Shown here: one piece after another, positions 1 to 37,664 of the stretch | How the letters are laid out: each line of letters begins with the position of its first letter | Numbering within the stretch: the first letter of the stretch is position 1 | From: Escherichia phage T7 | Strand: one strand, 5' to 3' | Length of the DNA stretch: 37,664 bases | Sequence record: AY264776.1 | The notes under the pieces: generated by a model | What the model saw: only the letters and a program-made list of their open reading frames with translations | Database searches by the model: none | Told to the model about the DNA's origin: nothing | Program-made: the position numbers and the translations under genes

Positions 1-137
1 TCCCCCATAGGGGGTACCTAAAGCCCAGCCAATCATCTAAAGTCAACCTTCGGTTGACCTTGAGGGTTCCCTAAGGGTTGGGGATGACCCTTGGGTTTGT
101 CTTTGGGTGTTACTTTGAGTGTTTCTCTGTGTCCCTA
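1..137. repeat. Left terminal direct repeat (partial; window starts ~23 bp inside the T7 terminal repeat)
   Basis: Bases 1-137 are repeated almost exactly at 37534-37664; sequence matches the T7 terminal redundancy (tcccccatagggggtacctaaagcccagcc...). Confidence 0.9.
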
Positions 138-1471: not shown

Positions 1472-1556
1472 ATGTATATGGACTGATAGTCTTATCTTAC
1501 AGGTCATTTGCGGGTGGCCTGAATAGGTACGATTTACTAACTGAAAGAGGCACTAA
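1472..1556 (+). other. Deletion scar: first codons of gene 0.5 (atgtatatg) joined to the sequence immediately upstream of gene 1; genes 0.5, 0.6, 0.7 absent
   Basis: Gene 0.4 is followed after ~150 bp by the RNA polymerase gene; no kinase (0.7) ORF anywhere in the window. Confidence 0.8.
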
Positions 1557-4208
1557 ATGAACACGATTAACATTGCTAAGAACGACTTCTCTGACATCGA
1601 ACTGGCTGCTATCCCGTTCAACACTCTGGCTGACCATTACGGTGAGCGTTTAGCTCGCGAACAGTTGGCTCTTGAACATGAGTCTTACGAGATGGGTGAA
1701 GCACGCTTCCGCAAGATGTTTGAGCGTCAACTTAAAGCTGGTGAGGTTGCGGATAACGCTGCCGCCAAGCCTCTCATCACTACCCTACTCCCTAAGATGA
1801 TTGCACGCATCAACGACTGGTTTGAGGAAGTGAAAGCTAAGCGCGGCAAGCGTCCGACAGCCTTCCAGTTTCTGCAAGAAATCAAGCCGGAAGCCGTAGC
1901 GTACATCACCATTAAAACCACTCTGGCTTGCCTAACCAGTGCTGACAATATAACCGTTCAGGCTGTAGCAAGCGCAATCGGTCGGGCCATTGAGGACGAG
2001 GCTCGCTTCGGTCGTATCCGTGACCTTGAAGCTAAGCACTTCAAGAAAAACGTTGAGGAACAACTCAACAAGCGCGTAGGGCACGTCTACAAGAAAGCAT
2101 TTATGCAAGTTGTCGAGGCTGACATGCTCTCTAAGGGTCTACTCGGTGGCGAGGCGTGGTCTTCGTGGCATAAGGAAGACTCTATTCATGTAGGAGTACG
2201 CTGCATCGAGATGCTCATTGAGTCAACCGGAATGGTTAGCTTACACCGCCAAAATGCTGGCGTAGTAGGTCAAGACTCTGAGACTATCGAACTCGCACCT
2301 GAATACGCTGAGGCTATCGCAACCCGTGCAGGTGCGCTGGCTGGCATTTCTCCAATGTTCCAACCTTGCGTAATTCCTTCTAAGCCGTGGACTGGCATTA
2401 CTGGTGGTGGCTATTGGGCTAACGGTCGTCGTCCTCTGGCGCTGGTGCGTACTCACAGTAAGAAAGCACTGATGCGCTACGAAAACGTTTACATGCCTGA
2501 GGTGTACAAAGCGATTAACATTGCGCAAAACACCGCATGGAAAATCAACAAGAAAGTCCTAGCGGTCGCCAACGTAATTACCAAGTGGAAGCATTGTCCG
2601 GTCGAGGACATCCCTGCGATTGAGCGTGAAGAACTCCCGATGAAACCGAAAGACATCGACATGAATCCTGAGGCTCTCACCGCGTGGAAACGTGCTGCCG
2701 CTGCTGTGTACCGCAAGGACAAGGCTCGCAAATCTCGCCGTATCAACCTTGAGTTCATGCTTGAGCAAGCCAATAAGTTTGCTAACCATAAGGCCATCTG
2801 GTTCCCTTACAACATGGACTGGCGCGGTCGTGTTTACGCTGTGTCAATGTTCAACCCGCAAGGTAACGATATGACCAAAGGACTGCTTACGCTGGCGAAA
2901 GGTAAACCAATCGGTAAGGAAGGTTACTACTGGCTGAAAATCCACGGTGCAAACTGTGCGGGTGTCGATAAGGTTCCGTTCCCTGAGCGCATCAAGTTCA
3001 TTGAGGAAAACCACGAGAACATCATGGCTTGTGCTAAGTCTCCACTGGAGAACACTTGGTGGGCTGAGCAAAATTCTCCGTTCTGCTTCCTTGCGTTCTG
3101 CTTTGAGTACGCTGGAGTACAGCACCACGGCCTGAGCTATAACTGCTCCCTTCCGCTGGCGTTTGACGGGTCTTGCTCTGGCATCCAGCACTTCTCCGCG
3201 ATGCTCCGAGATGAGGTAGGTGGTCGCGCGGTTAACTTGCTTCCTAGTGAAACCGTTCAGGACATCTACGGGATTGTTGCTAAAAAAGTCAACGAGATTC
3301 TACAAGCAGACGCAATCAATGGGACTGATAACGAAGTAGTTACCGTGACCGATGAGAACACTGGTGAAATCTCTGAGAAAATCAAACTGGGCACTAAGGC
3401 ACTGGCTGGTCAATGGCTGGCTTACGGTGTTACTCGCAGTGTGACTAAGCGTTCAGTCATGACGCTGGCTTACGGGTCCAAAGAGTTCGGCTTCCGTCAA
3501 CAAGTGCTAGAAGATACCATTCAGCCAGCTATTGATTCCGGCAAGGGTCTGATGTTCACTCAGCCGAATCAGGCTGCTGGATACATGGCTAAGCTGATTT
3601 GGGAATCTGTGAGCGTGACGGTGGTAGCTGCGGTTGAAGCAATGAACTGGCTTAAGTCTGCTGCTAAGCTGCTGGCTGCTGAGGTCAAAGATAAGAAGAC
3701 TGGAGAGATTCTTCGCAAGCGTTGCGCTGTGCATTGGGTAACTCCTGATGGTTTCCCTGTGTGGCAGGAATACAAGAAGCCTATTCAGACGCGCTTGAAC
3801 CTGATGTTCCTCGGTCAGTTCCGCTTACAGCCTACCATTAATACCAACAAAGATAGCGAGATTGATGCACACAAACAGGAGTCTGGTATCGCTCCTAACT
3901 TTGTACACAGTCAAGACGGTAGCCATCTTCGTAAGACTGTAGTGTGGGCACACGAGAAGTACGGAATCGAATCTTTTGCACTGATTCACGACTCCTTCGG
4001 TACCATTCCGGCTGACGCTGCGAACCTGTGCAAAGCAGTGCGCGAAACTATGGTTGACACATATGAGTCTTGTGATGTACTGGCTGATTTCTACGACCAG
4101 TTCGCTGACCAGTTGCACGAGTCTCAATTGGACAAAATGCCAGCACTTCCGGCTAAAGGTAACTTGAACCTCCGTGACATCTTAGAGTCGGACTTCGCGT
4201 TCGCGTAA
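1557..4208 (+). CDS. 1: T7 DNA-directed RNA polymerase
   Basis: 883 aa; catalytic HDSFG motif and C-terminal FAFA present. Confidence 0.98.
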   Translation: MNTINIAKNDFSDIELAAIPFNTLADHYGERLAREQLALEHESYEMGEARFRKMFERQLKAGEVADNAAAKPLITTLLPKMIARINDWFEEVKAKRGKRPTAFQFLQEIKPEAVAYITIKTTLACLTSADNITVQAVASAIGRAIEDEARFGRIRDLEAKHFKKNVEEQLNKRVGHVYKKAFMQVVEADMLSKGLLGGEAWSSWHKEDSIHVGVRCIEMLIESTGMVSLHRQNAGVVGQDSETIELAPEYAEAIATRAGALAGISPMFQPCVIPSKPWTGITGGGYWANGRRPLALVRTHSKKALMRYENVYMPEVYKAINIAQNTAWKINKKVLAVANVITKWKHCPVEDIPAIEREELPMKPKDIDMNPEALTAWKRAAAAVYRKDKARKSRRINLEFMLEQANKFANHKAIWFPYNMDWRGRVYAVSMFNPQGNDMTKGLLTLAKGKPIGKEGYYWLKIHGANCAGVDKVPFPERIKFIEENHENIMACAKSPLENTWWAEQNSPFCFLAFCFEYAGVQHHGLSYNCSLPLAFDGSCSGIQHFSAMLRDEVGGRAVNLLPSETVQDIYGIVAKKVNEILQADAINGTDNEVVTVTDENTGEISEKIKLGTKALAGQWLAYGVTRSVTKRSVMTLAYGSKEFGFRQQVLEDTIQPAIDSGKGLMFTQPNQAAGYMAKLIWESVSVTVVAAVEAMNWLKSAAKLLAAEVKDKKTGEILRKRCAVHWVTPDGFPVWQEYKKPIQTRLNLMFLGQFRLQPTINTNKDSEIDAHKQESGIAPNFVHSQDGSHLRKTVVWAHEKYGIESFALIHDSFGTIPADAANLCKAVRETMVDTYESCDVLADFYDQFADQLHESQLDKMPALPAKGNLNLRDILESDFAFA

Positions 4209-6176: not shown

Positions 6177-6269
6177 ATGATGTACTTAATGCCATTACTC
6201 ATCGTCATTGTAGGATGCCTTGCGCTCTACTGTAGCGATGATGATGATATGCCAAATGGTCACGCTTAA
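6177..6269 (+). CDS. 1.5: T7 gene 1.5 small protein
   Basis: 30-codon ORF MMYLMPLLIVIVGCLALYCSDDDDMPNGHA; contains a GAT x4 repeat. Confidence 0.7.
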   Translation: MMYLMPLLIVIVGCLALYCSDDDDMPNGHA

Positions 6270-12312: not shown

Positions 12313-12720
12313 ATGCGTGACCCTAAAGTTATCCAAGCAGAAATCGCTAAACTGGAAGTTGAACTGGAGGACGTTAAGTACCATGAAGCTAAGACTCGCT
12401 CCGCTGTTCACATCTTGAAAAACTTAGGCTGGACTTGGACAAGACAGACTGGCTGAAAGAAACCAGAAGTTACCAAGTTGAGTCATAAGGTGTTCGATAA
12501 GGACACTATGACCCACATCAAGGCTGGTGATTGGGTTAAGGTTGACATGGGAATTGTTGGTGGATACGACTACGTCCGCTCAGTTAGTGACAAATATGCA
12601 CAAATGTCATACATCACAGATGTTACTCCACGCGGTGCAATCGTTACCGATAAGACCAACATGATTCACACAGATTTCTTGACAGTTGTTTCATATGAAG
12701 AGATTGTTAAGTCACGATAA
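12313..12720 (+). pseudogene. 4.7: Gene 4.7 interrupted by an in-frame opal (TGA) codon at 12454-12456
   Basis: Two same-frame ORFs (12313..12456 and 12478..12720) together span 408 nt, the length of T7 gene 4.7 (135 aa); junction reads ...TRQTG*KKPEVTKLSHK... Confidence 0.8.
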
Positions 12721-14868: not shown

Positions 14869-15249
14869 ATGAACGAAAGACACTTAACAGGTGCTGCTTC
14901 TGAAATGCTAGTAGCCTACAAATTTACCAAAGCTGGGTACACTGTCTATTACTCTATGCTGACTCAGAGTAAAGAGGACTTGGTTGTATGTAAGGATGGT
15001 AAATTTAGTAAGGTTCAGGTTAAAACAGCTACAACGGTTCAAACCAACACAGGAGATGCCAAGCAGGTTAGGCTAGGTGAATGCGGTAGGTCCGAATATA
15101 AGGATGGAGACTTTGACATTCTTGCAGTTGTGGTTGACGAAGATGTGCTTATTTTCACATGGGACGAAGTAAAAGGTAAGACATCCATGTGTGTCGGCAA
15201 GAGAAACAAAGGCATAAAACTAGAGGAGAAACTTAATGGCACTTCTTGA
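14869..15249 (+). CDS. 5.3: Gene 5.3 fused in frame to the last ~8-9 codons of gene 5.9 (deletion of 5.5, 5.7 and most of 5.9)
   Basis: 126-aa ORF starting MNERHLTGAASEMLVAYKF (gp5.3) and ending ...EEKLNGTS (gp5.9 C-terminus), overlapping the gene 6 start as 5.9 does in T7. Confidence 0.75.
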   Translation: MNERHLTGAASEMLVAYKFTKAGYTVYYSMLTQSKEDLVVCKDGKFSKVQVKTATTVQTNTGDAKQVRLGECGRSEYKDGDFDILAVVVDEDVLIFTWDEVKGKTSMCVGKRNKGIKLEEKLNGTS

Positions 15250-16595: not shown

Positions 16596-16862
16596 ATGTG
16601 TTTCTCACCGAAAATTAAAACTCCGAAGATGGATACCAATCAGATTCGAGCCGTTGAGCCAACGCCTCTGACCCAAGAAGTGTCAAGCGTGGAGTTCGGT
16701 GGGTCTTCTGATGAGACGGATACCGAGGGCACCGAAGTGTCTGGACGCAAAGGCCTCAAGGTCGAACGTGATGATTCCGTAACGAAGTCTAAAGCCAGCG
16801 GCAATGGCTCCGCTCGTATGAAATCTTCCATCCGTAAGTCCGCATTTGGAGGTAAGAAGTGA
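16596..16862 (+). CDS. 6.7: Gene 6.7 virion protein
   Basis: 88 aa from ATG 16596 (MCFSPKIKTPKMDTNQIRAV...). Confidence 0.85.
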   Translation: MCFSPKIKTPKMDTNQIRAVEPTPLTQEVSSVEFGGSSDETDTEGTEVSGRKGLKVERDDSVTKSKASGNGSARMKSSIRKSAFGGKK

Positions 16863-17263
16863 TGTCTGAGTTCACATGTGTGGAGGCTAAGAGTCGCTTC
16901 CGTGCAATCCGGTGGACTGTGGAACACCTTGGGTTGCCTAAAGGATTCGAAGAACACTTTGTGGGCTACAGCCTCTACGTAGACGAAGTGATGGACATGT
17001 TTGGTTGCCGTGAAGAGTACATTCTGGACTCTACCGGAAAACATGTAGCGTACTTCGCGTGGTGCGTAAGCTGTGACATTCACCACAAAGGAGACATTCT
17101 GGATGTAACATCCGTTGTCATTAATCCTGAGGCAGACTCTAAGGGCTTACAGCGATTCCTAGCGAAACGCTTTAAGTACCTTGCGGAACTCCACGATTGC
17201 GATTGGGTGTCTCGTTGTAAACATGAAAGCGAGACAATGCGTGTATACTTTAAGGAGGTATAA
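16862..17263 (+). CDS. 7: Gene 7 protein (host range / virion)
   Basis: 133 aa from ATG 16862; the ORF track begins at an upstream GTG. Confidence 0.85.
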   Translation: MSEFTCVEAKSRFRAIRWTVEHLGLPKGFEEHFVGYSLYVDEVMDMFGCREEYILDSTGKHVAYFAWCVSCDIHHKGDILDVTSVVINPEADSKGLQRFLAKRFKYLAELHDCDWVSRCKHESETMRVYFKEV

Positions 17264-17266
17264 GTT

Positions 17267-17566
17267 ATGGATATGAAAGTTAAGAAGGCCGTGAAGAAAG
17301 TCGCCAAGTTCGTTAAGAAAGTCGTTAAGGAAGGGGCTCGTCCGGTTACACAGGTTGCTGGCGGTCTAGCTGGTCTGGCTGGTGGTACTGGTGAAGCACA
17401 GATGGTGAAAGTACCACAAGCTGCCGCACAGATTGTTGACGTACCTGAGAAAGAGGTTTCCACTGAGGACGAAGCACAGACAGAAAGCGGACGCAAGAAA
17501 GCTCGTGCTGGCGGTAAGAAATCCTTGAGTGTAGCCCGTAGCTCCGGTAGCGGTATCAACATTTAA
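17267..17566 (+). CDS. 7.3: Gene 7.3 tail-associated protein
   Basis: 99 aa, Lys/Ala-rich MDMKVKKAVKKVAKFVKKVVKEG... Confidence 0.9.
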   Translation: MDMKVKKAVKKVAKFVKKVVKEGARPVTQVAGGLAGLAGGTGEAQMVKVPQAAAQIVDVPEKEVSTEDEAQTESGRKKARAGGKKSLSVARSSGSGINI

Positions 17567-19681: not shown

Positions 19682-20605
19682 ATGGCTGAATCTAATGCAG
19701 ACGTATATGCATCTTTTGGCGTGAACTCCGCTGTGATGTCTGGTGGTTCCGTTGAGAAACATGAGCAGAACATGCTGGCTCTTGATGTTGCTGCCCGTGA
19801 TGGCGATGATGCAATCGAGTTAGCGTCAGACGAAGTGGAAACAGAACGTGACCTGTATGACAACTCTGACCCGTTCGGTCAAGAGGATGACGAAGGCCGC
19901 ATTCAGGTTCGTATCGGTGATGGCTCTGAGCCGACCGATGTGAACACTGGAGAAGAAGGCGTTGAGGGCACCGAAGGTTCCGAAGAGTTTACCCCACTGG
20001 GCGAGACTCCAGAAGAACTGGTAGCTGCCTCTGAGCAACTTGGTGAGCACGAAGAGGGCTTCCAAGAGATGCTTAACATTGCTGCTGAGCGTGGCATGAG
20101 TGTCGAGACCATTGAGGCTATCCAGCGTGAGTACGAGGAGAACGAAGAGTTGTCCGCCGAGTCCTACGCTAAGTTGGCTGAAATTGGCTACACGAAGGCT
20201 TTCATTGACTCGTATATCCGTGGTCAAGAAGCTCTGGTGAAGCAGTATGTAAACAGTGTCATTGAGTACGCTGGTGGTCGTGAACGTTTTGATGCACTGT
20301 ATAACCACCTTGAGACGCACAACCCTGAGGCTGCACAGTCGCTGGATAATGCGTTGACCAATCGTGACTTAGCGNCCGTTAAGGCTATCATCAACTTGGC
20401 TGATGAATCTCGCGTTAAGGCGTTCGGTCGTAAGCCAACTCGTAGTGTGACTAATCGTGCTATTCCGGCTAAACCTCAGGTTATCAAGTGTGAAGGCTTT
20501 GCGGACCGTAGCGAGATGATTAAAGCTATGAGTGATCCTCGGTATCGCACAGATGCCAACTATCGTCGTCAAGTCGAACAGAAAGTAATCGATTCGAACT
20601 TCTGA
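19682..20605 (+). CDS. 9: Capsid assembly (scaffolding) protein
   Basis: 307 aa, acidic; N base at 20375. Confidence 0.96.
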   Translation: MAESNADVYASFGVNSAVMSGGSVEKHEQNMLALDVAARDGDDAIELASDEVETERDLYDNSDPFGQEDDEGRIQVRIGDGSEPTDVNTGEEGVEGTEGSEEFTPLGETPEELVAASEQLGEHEEGFQEMLNIAAERGMSVETIEAIQREYEENEELSAESYAKLAEIGYTKAFIDSYIRGQEALVKQYVNSVIEYAGGRERFDALYNHLETHNPEAAQSLDNALTNRDLAXVKAIINLADESRVKAFGRKPTRSVTNRAIPAKPQVIKCEGFADRSEMIKAMSDPRYRTDANYRRQVEQKVIDSNF

Positions 20606-20618
20606 TAGACTTCGAAAT

Positions 20619-20641
20619 TAATACGACTCACTATAGGGAGA
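20619..20641 (+). promoter_or_regulatory. T7 promoter phi10 with gene 10 leader
   Basis: taatacgactcactatagggagaccacaacggtttccctctagaaataattttgtttaactttaagaagga, the leader familiar from T7 expression vectors. Confidence 0.97.
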
Positions 20642-20698
20642 CCACAACGGTTTCCCTCTAGAAATAATTTTGTTTAACTTTAAGAAGGAAATATACAT

Positions 20699-21736
20699 AT
20701 GGCTAGCATGACTGGTGGACAGCAAATGGGTACTAATCAAGGTAAAGGTGTAGTTGCTGCTGGAGATAAACTGGCGTTGTTCTTGAAGATATTTGGCGGT
20801 GAAGTCCTGACTGCGTTCGCTCGTACCTCCGTGACCACTTCTCACCACATGGTACGTTCCATCTCCAGCGGTAAATCCGCTCAGTTCCCTGTTCTGGGTC
20901 GCACTCAGGCAGCGTATCTGGCTCCGGGCGAGAACCTCGACGATAAACGTAAGGACATCAAACACACCGAGAAGGTAATCACCATTGACGGTCTCCTGAC
21001 GGCTGACGTTCTGATTTATGATATTGAGGACGCGATGAACCACTACGACGTTCGCTCTGAGTATACCTCTCAGTTGGGTGAATCTCTGGCGATGGCTGCG
21101 GATGGTGCGGTTCTGGCTGAGATTGCCGGTCTGTGTAACGTGGAAAGCAAATATAATGAGAACATCGAGGGCTTAGGTACTGCTACCGTAATTGAGATCA
21201 CTCAGAACAAGCCCGCACTTACCGACCAAGTTGTGCTGGGTAAGGAGATTATTGCGGCTCTGACTAAGGCTCGTGCGACTCTGACCAAGAACTATGTTCC
21301 GGCTGCTGACCGTGTGTTCTACTGTGACCCAGATAGCTACTCTGCGATTCTGGCAGCACTGATGCCGAACGCAGCAAACTACGCTGCTCTGATTGACCCT
21401 GAGAAGGGTTCTATCCGCAACGTTATGGGCTTTGAGGTTGTAGAAGTTCCGCACCTCACCGCTGGTGGTGCTGGTATTGCTCGTGAGGGCACTACTGGTC
21501 AGAAGCACGTCTTCCCTGCCAATAAAGGTGAGGGTAATGTCAAGGTTGCTAAGGACAACGTTATCGGCCTGTTCATGCACCGCTCTGCGGTAGGTACTGT
21601 TAAGCTGCGTGACTTGGCTCTGGAGCGCGCTCGCCGTGCTAACTTCCAAGCGGACCAGATTATCGCTAAGTACGCAATGGGTCACGGTGGTCTTCGCCCA
21701 GAAGCTGCTGGTGCAGTGGTTTTCAAAGTGGAGTAA
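20699..21736 (+). CDS. 10A: Major capsid protein 10A
   Basis: 345 aa beginning MASMTGGQQMG. Confidence 0.98.
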   Translation: MASMTGGQQMGTNQGKGVVAAGDKLALFLKIFGGEVLTAFARTSVTTSHHMVRSISSGKSAQFPVLGRTQAAYLAPGENLDDKRKDIKHTEKVITIDGLLTADVLIYDIEDAMNHYDVRSEYTSQLGESLAMAADGAVLAEIAGLCNVESKYNENIEGLGTATVIEITQNKPALTDQVVLGKEIIAALTKARATLTKNYVPAADRVFYCDPDSYSAILAALMPNAANYAALIDPEKGSIRNVMGFEVVEVPHLTAGGAGIAREGTTGQKHVFPANKGEGNVKVAKDNVIGLFMHRSAVGTVKLRDLALERARRANFQADQIIAKYAMGHGGLRPEAAGAVVFKVE

Positions 21737-21959: not shown

Positions 21960-22550
21960 ATGCGCTCATACGATATGAACGTTGAGACTGCTGCTGAGTT
22001 ATCAGCTGTGAACGACATTTTGGCGTCTATCGGTGAACCTCCGGTATCAACGCTGGAAGGTGACACTAACGCAGATACAGCGAACGCTCGGCGTATTCTC
22101 AACAAGATTAACCGACAGATTCAATCTCGTGGATGGACGTTCAACATTGAGGAAGGCATAACGCTACTACCTGATGTTTACTCCAACCTGATTGTATACA
22201 GTGACGACTATTTATCCCTAATGTCTACTTCCGGTCAATCCATCTACGTTAACCGAGGTGGCTATGTGTATGACCGAACGAATCAATCAGACCGCTTTGA
22301 CTCTGGTATTACTGTGAACATTATTCGTCTCCGCGACTACGATGAGATGCCTGAGTGCTTCCGTTACTGGATTGTCACCAAGGCTTCTCGTCAGTTCAAC
22401 AACCGATTCTTTGGGGCACCGGAAGTAGAGGGTGTACTTCAAGAAGAGGAAGATGAGGCTAGACGTCTCTGCATGGAGTATGAGATGGACTACGGTGGGT
22501 ACAATATGCTGGATGGAGATGCGTTCACTTCTGGTCTACTGACTCGCTAA
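21960..22550 (+). CDS. 11: Tail tubular protein A
   Basis: 196-aa ORF. Confidence 0.96.
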
Positions 22551-22573: not shown

Positions 22574-24958
22574 ATGGCACTCATTAGCCAATCAATCAAG
22601 AACTTGAAGGGTGGTATCAGCCAACAGCCTGACATCCTTCGTTATCCAGACCAAGGGTCACGCCAAGTTAACGGTTGGTCTTCGGAGACCGAGGGCCTCC
22701 AAAAGCGTCCACCTCTTGTTTTCTTAAATACACTTGGAGACAACGGTGCGTTAGGTCAAGCTCCGTACATCCACCTGATTAACCGAGATGAGCACGAACA
22801 GTATTACGCTGTGTTCACTGGTAGCGGAATCCGAGTGTTCGACCTTTCTGGTAACGAGAAGCAAGTTAGGTATCCTAACGGTTCCAACTACATCAAGACC
22901 GCTAATCCACGTAACGACCTGCGAATGGTTACTGTAGCAGACTATACGTTCATCGTTAACCGTAACATTGTTGCACAGAAGAACACAAAGTCTGTCAACT
23001 TACCGAATTACAACCCTAATCAAGACGGATTGATTAACGTTCGTGGTGGTCAGTATGGTAGGGAACTAATTGTACACATTAACGGTAAAGACGTTGCGAA
23101 GTATAAAATACCAGATGGTAGTCAACCTGAACACGTAAACAATACGGATGCCCAATGGTTAGCTGAAGAGTTAGCCAAGCAGATGCGCACTAACTTGTCT
23201 GATTGGACTGTAAATGTAGGGCAAGGGTTCATTCATGTGACCGCACCTAGTGGTCAACAGATTGACTCCTTCACGACTAAAGATGGCTACGCAGACCAAT
23301 TGATTAACCCTGTGACCCACTACGCTCAGTCGTTCTCTAAGCTGCCACCTAATGCTCCTAACGGCTACATGGTGAAAATCGTAGGGGACGCTTCTAAGTC
23401 TGCCGACCAGTATTACGTTCGGTATGACGCTGAGCGGAAAGTTTGGACTGAGACTTTAGGTTGGAACACTGAGGACCAAGTTCTATGGGAAACCATGCCA
23501 CACGCTCTTGTGCGAGCCGCTGACGGTAATTTCGACTTCAAGTGGCTTGAGTGGTCTCCTAAGTCTTGTGGTGACGTTGACACCAATCCTTGGCCTTCTT
23601 TTGTTGGTTCAAGTATTAACGATGTGTTCTTCTTCCGTAACCGCTTAGGATTCCTTAGTGGGGAGAACATCATATTGAGTCGTACAGCCAAATACTTCAA
23701 CTTCTACCCTGCGTCCATTGCGAACCTTAGTGATGACGACCCTATAGACGTAGCTGTGAGTACCAACCGAATAGCAATCCTTAAGTACGCCGTTCCGTTC
23801 TCAGAAGAGTTACTCATCTGGTCCGATGAAGCACAATTCGTCTTGACTGCCTCGGGTACTCTCACATCTAAGTCGGTTGAGTTGAACCTAACGACCCAGT
23901 TTGACGTACAGGACCGAGCGAGACCTTTTGGGATTGGACGTAATGTCTACTTTGCTAGTCCGAGGTCCAGCTTCACGTCCATCCACAGGTACTACGCTGT
24001 GCAGGATGTCAGTTCCGTTAAGAATGCTGAGGACATTACATCACACGTTCCTAACTACATCCCTAATGGTGTGTTCAGTATTTGCGGAAGTGGTACGGAA
24101 AACTTCTGTTCGGTACTATCTCACGGGAACCCTAGTAAAATCTTCATGTACAAATTCCTGTACCTGAACGAAGAGTTAAGGCAACAGTCGTGGTCTCATT
24201 GGGACTTTGGGGAAAACGTACAGGTTCTAGCTTGTCAGAGTATCAGCTCAGATATGTATGTGGTTCTTCGTAATGAGTTCAATACGTTTCTAGCTAGAAT
24301 CTCTTTCACTAAGAACGCCATTGACTTACAGGGAGAACCCTATCGTGCCTTTATGGACATGAAGATTCGATACACGATTCCTAGTGGAACATACAACGAT
24401 GACACATTCACTACCTCTATTCATATTCCAACAATTTATGGTGCAAACTTCGGGAGGGGCAAAATCACTGTATTGGAGCCTGATGGTAAGATAACCGTGT
24501 TTGAGCAACCTACGGCTGGGTGGAATAGCGACCCTTGGCTGAGACTCAGCGGTAACTTGGAGGGACGCATGGTGTACATTGGGTTCAACATTAACTTCGT
24601 ATATGAGTTCTCTAAGTTTCTCATCAAGCAGACTGCCGACGACGGGTCTACTTCCACGGAAGACATTGGGCGCTTACAGTTACGCCGAGCGTGGATTAAC
24701 TACGAGAACTCTGGTACGTTTGACATTTATGTTGAGAACCAATCGTCTAACTGGAAGTACACAATGGCTGGTGCCCGATTAGGCTCTAACACTCTGAGGG
24801 CTGGGAGACTGAACTTAGGGACCGGACAATATCGATTTCCTGTGGTTGGTAACGCCAAGTTCAACACTGTATACATCTTGTCAGATGAGACTACCCCTCT
24901 GAACATCATTGGGTGTGGCTGGGAAGGTAACTACTTACGGAGAAGTTCCGGTATTTAA
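22574..24958 (+). CDS. 12: Tail tubular protein B
   Basis: 794-aa ORF. Confidence 0.96.
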   Translation: MALISQSIKNLKGGISQQPDILRYPDQGSRQVNGWSSETEGLQKRPPLVFLNTLGDNGALGQAPYIHLINRDEHEQYYAVFTGSGIRVFDLSGNEKQVRYPNGSNYIKTANPRNDLRMVTVADYTFIVNRNIVAQKNTKSVNLPNYNPNQDGLINVRGGQYGRELIVHINGKDVAKYKIPDGSQPEHVNNTDAQWLAEELAKQMRTNLSDWTVNVGQGFIHVTAPSGQQIDSFTTKDGYADQLINPVTHYAQSFSKLPPNAPNGYMVKIVGDASKSADQYYVRYDAERKVWTETLGWNTEDQVLWETMPHALVRAADGNFDFKWLEWSPKSCGDVDTNPWPSFVGSSINDVFFFRNRLGFLSGENIILSRTAKYFNFYPASIANLSDDDPIDVAVSTNRIAILKYAVPFSEELLIWSDEAQFVLTASGTLTSKSVELNLTTQFDVQDRARPFGIGRNVYFASPRSSFTSIHRYYAVQDVSSVKNAEDITSHVPNYIPNGVFSICGSGTENFCSVLSHGNPSKIFMYKFLYLNEELRQQSWSHWDFGENVQVLACQSISSDMYVVLRNEFNTFLARISFTKNAIDLQGEPYRAFMDMKIRYTIPSGTYNDDTFTTSIHIPTIYGANFGRGKITVLEPDGKITVFEQPTAGWNSDPWLRLSGNLEGRMVYIGFNINFVYEFSKFLIKQTADDGSTSTEDIGRLQLRRAWINYENSGTFDIYVENQSSNWKYTMAGARLGSNTLRAGRLNLGTGQYRFPVVGNAKFNTVYILSDETTPLNIIGCGWEGNYLRRSSGI

Positions 24959-37509: not shown

Positions 37510-37664
37510 TCTCACAGTGTACGGACTTAAAGTTCCCCCATAGGGGGTACCTAAAGCCCAGCCAATCATCTAAAGTCAACCTTCGGTTGACCTTGAGGGT
37601 TCCCTAAGGGTTGGGGATGACCCTTGGGTTTGTCTTTGGGTGTTACTTTGAGTGTCTCTCTGTG
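37510..37664. repeat. Right terminal direct repeat (lacks the last ~5 bases)
   Basis: tctcacagtgtacggacttaaagttccccca...; bases 37534-37664 repeat window bases 1-131 with one mismatch. Confidence 0.9.

Follow-up and report, generated by a model that had tools for sequence, protein, structure and literature searches.

A G-to-A substitution in the gene 10 Shine-Dalgarno sequence of a probably mutagenized T7 genome

The gene 10 leader and its Shine-Dalgarno variant

The wild-type leader of T7 gene 10 (g10RBS), associated with work by Olins et al. in 1988 and Olins and Rangwala in 1989, is the ribosome-binding site (RBS) of the pET vectors. The T7 g10RBS is described in PMC8748333, where Enh is a 9-nt element upstream of the Shine-Dalgarno sequence (SD). 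T7 burst size follows capsid abundance, such that halving gp10 translation halved burst size (PMC5592923), and capsid supply has been reduced by design through codon deoptimization of gene 10 and knockouts of the phi9/phi10 promoters (PMC5592923, PMC6068830). Here we describe a change in the gene 10 SD of T7 record AY264776.1, of which we analyzed a stretch of 37,664 nucleotides (the window). Like the designed reductions, it acts in cis and is expected to lower gp10; the designed changes work on elongation or transcription, with measured effects, whereas the window change arose at random, would act on initiation via the SD, and has a predicted effect. The nearest relative is T7 isolate K (AY264775), which at 39,093 bp is longer than the window and carries the identical SD mutation together with ~390 substitutions in common with it.

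Between positions 20606 and 20698 the window differs from the wild-type g10RBS at one base, in an SD that reads AAGGAA; phi10, the 5' hairpin, Enh TTAACTTTA, the remainder of the SD, the ATATACAT spacer, and the ATG are all shared (Table 1). Position 20690 is A in the window and G at the homologous nucleotide 22958 of V01146, and both wild-type references used here (V01146.1 and AY264774.1, the latter the Bull-laboratory T7+) have G at this site within the gene 10 RBS AAGGAGATATACATATG. Locally the window sequence is TTTAACTTTAAGAAGGAAATATACATATGGCTAGC. Gene 10 starts with the ATG that occupies 20699-20701; positions 20684-20698 read GAAGGAAATATACAT, and a 20-mer around the SD occurs once in the window. 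The substitution is the sole change from the end of gene 9 (20605) to the gene 10 ATG. Every other feature that defines the g10RBS locus was found. The lone exception is the canonical SD hexamer AAGGAG, with its GGAGAT core, that precedes the ATG by 8 nt: its terminal G is A at 20690, which makes the locus a point mutant rather than the canonical g10RBS allele. The first-pass annotation had described exactly this base within 20684-20698, had placed it in the gene 10 leader, and had contrasted it with the widely used T7 gene 10 RBS; our direct reading of the window agrees on each point, the leader being driven by phi10 and AAGGAG being the form in reference T7 and in expression vectors. A reference carrying AAGGAA would have overturned that description, and because both references carry G, it stands. 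The difference from the reference is genuine.

The surrounding elements are otherwise as in wild type. The phi10 promoter is homologous to "T7 promoter phi10" at 22904 of V01146 and is identical to wild type in the alignment, the 5' hairpin is predicted to be identical for window and wild-type transcripts in both minimum free energy (MFE) and centroid structures, and phi9 and Tphi are intact. We searched phi9, phi10, Tphi, and the leader for compensating cis changes and found none there. Gene 10A itself has 10 nucleotide and 7 amino acid substitutions relative to wild type (V31I, R49H, T167I, A172P, A179V, A194T, and T260I), and the window gp11 is an exact match to AAP34052.1. The accession numbers of the matched gp10A and gp11 proteins lie between those of the K proteins (AAP33966-34017) and those of P (AAP34067 onward).

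Table 1. Parts of the gene 10 region and weakened SD sites in the window; duplex energies are predicted for SD:anti-SD pairing (kcal/mol)
Feature	Position in window	Strand	Wild-type duplex	Window duplex	Remarks
Class III promoter phi10 TAATACGACTCACTATAGGGAGA	20619..20641	+			Exact consensus match; start of transcription 20636; unmutated
Leader RNA 5' stem-loop GGGAGACCACAACGGUUUCCC	20636..20656	+			Predicted 8-bp hairpin; unmutated
A/U-rich translational enhancer Enh/epsilon TTAACTTTA	20674..20682	+			Read directly; identical to wild type
Gene 10 SD AAGGAA	20685..20690	+			G>A at 20690 relative to wild-type AAGGAG
SD-to-start spacer ATATACAT	20691..20698	+			Unmutated
Gene 10A, major capsid protein	20699..21736	+			From mapping and translation; product identical to AAP34051.1 ("gene 10A [Escherichia phage T7]")
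Gene 0.5 SD	1467		-7.3	-6.3	
Gene 1.2 SD	4513		-10.7	-7.3	
Gene 1.3 SD	4851		-7.3	-4.2	
Gene 1.5 SD	6164		-12.9	-7.1	
Gene 3 SD	8633/8638		-11.3	-8.7	
Gene 4.5 SD	11959		-7.4	-1.0	GGAG to GAAG; most severe
Gene 6.7 SD	16581/16586		-11.5	-9.4	
Gene 7.7 SD	17570		-11.0	-6.5	
Gene 10A SD	20690		-8.8	-5.7	
Gene 13 SD	25030		-10.8	-7.4	
Gene 18.5 SD	34641		-10.3	-5.7	

Origin of the substitution in a probably mutagenized lineage

Whole-genome alignment to wild-type T7 recovered ~415 substitutions in the window, 367 of which (88%) are G>A (184) or C>T (183). Isolate K has 414 substitutions relative to wild type (93% G:C>A:T), and in the independent lineage P the count is 305 (94% G:C>A:T). Per-site rates depend on the 5' neighbor of the mutated G, at 2.7% for A-G and 3.7% for G-G compared to 1.0% for C-G and 0.7% for T-G, so that 5'-RG sites mutated 3 to 5 times as often as 5'-YG sites. 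A G preceded by a purine is the classical target of alkylating agents of the MNNG type, and the genome-wide G:C>A:T spectrum shows this preference. The SD change is itself a G:C>A:T transition (G in wild type, A in the window), as expected of an alkylating agent, and the mutated G is preceded by A, placing it in the 5'-A-G context. The mutagen used on the T7 K lineage was probably nitrosoguanidine, and the spectrum supports this. Sites at which a G:C transition would be synonymous mutated at 2.7%, versus 1.5% for nonsynonymous ones, indicating that some purifying selection persisted during accumulation. PMC4811365 (Bull 2015) cites Bull et al. 2003 as an instance of random-mutation fixation through extreme population bottlenecks, and PMC2680503 and PMC6938266 credit AY264774 to the same 2003 study.

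The lineage of the window can be traced through its closest matches. Whether the query was a 601-bp segment containing the site or the initial 25 kb of the window, the best DNA match was AY264775.1 ("T7 isolate K") at 99.8 to 99.9% identity, compared to 98.2 to 98.8% for wild-type T7 records, and whole-genome alignment of the window to K shows 35 differing positions, 9 of which involve an N. At position 20690 the allele is A in K and the window and G in wild type, P, and P82. An 81-nt query in which the SD base is the only difference from wild type had a 100% match to AY264775 alone among 177 phage records; the mutation is absent from P, P82, and 175 other phage records. This distribution argues for a single origin in the K line during mutation accumulation, followed by inheritance by the window genome. 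The substitution is not new to the databases: AY264775 and AY264776 have made it publicly available since 2003.

The gene 10 SD is one of many translation signals altered in this genome. When SD:anti-SD duplexes were recomputed for every annotated T7 gene, 11 annotated genes, including 10A, had weakened SDs (Table 1); the ligase gene 1.3 has the same GGAGA-to-GGAAA change as gene 10. SD cores (GGAG, GGAGG) consist largely of 5'-purine-G sites, the preferred targets of the mutagen, so random hits in SDs are expected. We counted 14 G>A changes in the SD windows (-16 to -5) of 51 genes, where 9.3 are expected at context-matched synonymous-site rates (P = 0.09). A genome-wide context-specific baseline gives 6.1 expected versus the 14 observed (P = 0.004), but this baseline is lowered by purifying selection on coding (nonsynonymous) sites. 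Preferential targeting or selection of SDs was rejected on these grounds, since the excess disappears against context-matched synonymous sites; SDs were hit about as fast as neutral sites, so that no purging of SD hits can be detected and no excess of them is convincing. At the same synonymous-site rates the chance of at least one hit among the three Gs of the gene 10 AAGGAG is ~12%, and the change is statistically unsurprising in this genome. The special significance implied by the first-pass annotation is therefore unwarranted, given an apparently mutagenized lineage with ~415 substitutions, 10 other weakened SDs, and the same base in the ancestor AY264775. Ordinary in this context, the SD change matters little beyond bookkeeping, and what interest remains is that nature has here supplied an experiment on how much slack the SD of a phage late gene has; a viable, recoverable T7 with 11 weakened SDs, that of the capsid gene among them, is anecdotal evidence of slack in translation signals.

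The changes that separate the window from K have a different character. Relative to K, the window has 20 new substitutions, 3 apparent reversions (sites back to the wild-type base), 2 re-mutated sites, and two larger deletions (one that extends the loss in genes 0.5 to 0.7 and one that removes genes 5.5 to 5.9); the SD A was kept. The new substitutions include those at 4030, 10885, 12791, 13405, 17274, 17349, 20072, 20844, 21212, 22077, 25636, 26502, 30208, 32711, 34203, and 36635. Of the 16 in coding sequence, 15 are nonsynonymous. G:C>A:T accounts for just 3 of the 20 and A:T>C:G transversions for 10, a spectrum unlike that of the mutagen and unlike that of the P-to-P82 interval. Most of the new changes affect genes for structure or morphogenesis (two in 7.3 and the rest in 9, 10A, 11, 14, 16, 17, 17.5, and 19), with others in genes 1, 4, and 5; the DNA polymerase encoded by gene 5 gained F18C and L223M. 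The re-mutated sites lie in genes 10A and 15, where codon 172 of gene 10A (21212; A172T and then T172P) and codon 149 of gene 15 (26502) moved to a third state, as is typical when damaged residues undergo compensatory evolution. As a whole, the K-to-window pattern looks like adaptive or compensatory recovery and suggests that these substitutions are selected compensatory changes, possibly acquired in a mutator condition.

Predicted effect on initiation and alternative readings

The SD duplex with the 3' end of 16S rRNA (ACCUCCUUA) is predicted to fall from 6 bp at -8.8 kcal/mol to 5 bp at -5.7 kcal/mol with the register unchanged, a loss of ~3.1 kcal/mol and of one base pair with the anti-SD. 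Removal of this last G-C pair bears out the earlier claim that complementarity is cut from AAGGAG to AAGGA. Across 51 T7 genes, the gene 10 SD is mid-range in wild type but one of the five weakest in the window. A structural rearrangement of the leader was rejected as a mechanism, since the predicted folds of the mutant and wild-type leaders are essentially identical (isogenic MFEs of -25.6 and -25.7 kcal/mol), and the SD/AUG region is predicted to be unpaired in the window centroid structure and largely unpaired in wild type. As modeled, the only direct consequence is that the SD helix is one G-C pair shorter. Under the thermodynamic initiation model associated with Salis et al. in 2009, in which the rate is said to be proportional to exp(-0.45 × ΔG), this loss would lead to a drop of up to ~4-fold, and the effect may be smaller. 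On these calculations, translation initiation on the capsid gene is likely lowered by the weakened SD.

Published measurements bear on the size of this effect in both directions, and a search of the accessible literature found no direct data for the exact gene 10 AAGGAA variant. In the full-length g10RBS, another single-base SD change (GGAGAT to GGAGGT, which lengthens the pairing by one) shifted output by only ~20% (PMC8748333), so the effect of the G>A change could also be small. Vimberg et al. 2007 found that a strong A/U-rich enhancer widens the differences among SD strengths in a cooperative manner, with the enhancer benefiting strong SDs more (PMC2176067). The idea that the A/U-rich enhancer buffers a weak SD was rejected because it is contradicted by this cooperativity, which also leads us to favor reduced initiation, with neutrality as its rival.

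Conservation provides a further view of the site. AGAAGGAGA is invariant in 10 of 10 aligned sequences from outside the K lineage, which comprise laboratory T7 (including wild type and P) and 8 natural relatives; in two of the relatives, Salmonella phage Ayanbimpe and Yersinia phage vB_YenP_WW2, it is still invariant although the upstream leader is unrelated. This invariance, a pattern in aligned sequences, argues for purifying selection in nature. Within the K lineage, the SD A was left unreverted from K to the window while other sites reverted, which argues that the cost is not large; the fitness cost of the SD change is probably real but modest relative to the other improvements available.

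Taking these lines of evidence together, we consider it very probable that the substitution is a mutagen-induced G>A of the K lineage, a passenger fixed without selection that weakens the SD and is probably mildly deleterious. According to this reconstruction, the isolate K line (AY264775) would have gained its ~414 substitutions when T7 was mutagenized and passed through bottlenecks by Bull et al. 2003, with the 20690 G>A presumably arising in the mutation-accumulation phase as an alkylation-type G:C>A:T transition. The change would then have been fixed as a passenger, by drift or hitchhiking rather than selection, and passed unchanged to AY264776, the putative descendant of K. The SD:anti-SD helix would lose its 3'-most G-C pair and hybridization would weaken by ~3 kcal/mol, with no change to the mRNA fold, the spacing register, the enhancer, the promoters, or the terminator. 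Recruitment of the 30S subunit to gene 10 mRNA, and with it initiation, would be reduced, and the phage would tolerate somewhat less capsid protein at a modest fitness cost.

It is possible, if somewhat doubtful, that the change is instead functionally neutral, with initiation not limited by the sixth SD pair and AAGGA at ~9 nt spacing the equal of AAGGAG in a g10 leader that is unstructured, A/U-rich, and equipped with an Enh element. The persistence of the A when other sites reverted fits this proposal, as do the small response of the g10RBS to a one-pair SD lengthening, the predicted absence of pairing at the SD/AUG, and a genome-wide rate of SD-window G>A at or above that of synonymous sites, which indicates no detectable purifying selection on SDs in the line. 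The proposal fits less well with the invariance of the G in all 10 sequences from outside the K lineage, some with divergent leaders, and in 175 other records, with the amplification of SD-strength differences by strong enhancers (Vimberg et al.; PMC2176067), and with the low rank that the mutated SD now holds among T7 genes. The difference between strict neutrality, which is plausible, and a mildly deleterious passenger is one of magnitude only.

A related reading, which we regard as unlikely, is that loss of the pair is essentially cost-free in the top-expressed gene of T7, or else that later changes in the K lineage partly compensate for reduced capsid supply; candidates for the latter may include the capsid changes R49H and A172T followed by T172P, together with other structural-gene changes. 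If either were true, the archived isolates of K and AY264776 would be a ready-made test of SD strength in a native phage late gene.

Positive selection for the SD change itself, to turn capsid synthesis down in compensation for other damage (for example, a rebalancing of capsid against scaffold or portal amid damaged morphogenesis genes), appears very improbable. Retention of the A through the K-to-window phase and the many amino acid changes in genes 9 (10 changes) and 10 (7 changes) could be read in its favor, as could the nominal excess of SD hits (14 versus 9.3), but that excess is not significant (P = 0.09), the change has the exact signature and context of the mutagen, and it is found in only one of two lineages, P having no SD change. 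In addition, capsid abundance limits T7 burst size (PMC5592923). An error of sequencing or base calling in the deposited record is scarcely credible, for although the sequence dates from 2003 and contains six N calls, K and the window, which were deposited as separate genomes, have the same A, no N lies within ~300 nt (the nearest is at 20375), and the change fits the genome-wide spectrum.

Other differences among the window, isolate K, and lineage P

The six N positions in the record are 10477, 10633, 20375, 25678, 35600, and 35660. The ends of the window (1-135 and 37534-37664) correspond to the T7 terminal repeat, and because the window begins at wild-type nucleotide 25, the left repeat is truncated. 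Two larger deletions are present. The first removes wild-type positions ~1505-3084 (most of genes 0.5, 0.6, and 0.7) and exceeds the 844-bp deletion of isolate K; its junction, at window positions ~1466-1480, lies in a short imperfect repeat (GTAATGTATATGG versus GTAATGTTAATGG) and leaves a 4-codon remnant open reading frame, ATGTATATGGACTGA. The second, absent in K, spans 637 bp and takes out genes 5.5, 5.7, and 5.9 (wild-type ~16849-17485; junction at window 15218-15235). It joins the RBS region of gene 5.5 (AACTATAGGAGAAATTATTATGG) to that of gene 6 (AACTAGAGGAGAAACTTAATGG), which is similar to it, and gene 6 retains its own RBS. The K annotation already calls genes 5.7 and 5.9 merely "similar to" their namesakes.

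Smaller lesions were also found. Gene 4.7 (12313-12720) has an internal stop at W48 and 9 amino acid changes and is therefore a pseudogene; in the K annotation it is only "similar to gene 4.7." An in-frame 3-bp insertion in gene 1.5 (window 6237-6239) extends DDD to DDDD, and an in-frame 3-bp deletion in gene 1.7 (window ~6586) removes E from EKENPP.

K and P have 21 identical substitutions relative to wild type (for example, at wild-type positions 3284, 5540, 7842, 19571, and 19578), which could be the product of a short shared ancestry or of mutational hotspots. Isolate P (AY264777) has two C>T changes inside its phi10 promoter (TAATACGATTCATTATAGGGAGA, ~22054-22076), at promoter positions -9 and -5, and both are kept in P82. 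Together with the SD change in K, these show that both apparently mutagenized lineages were hit in gene 10 signals, at the level of transcription in P and of translation in K.
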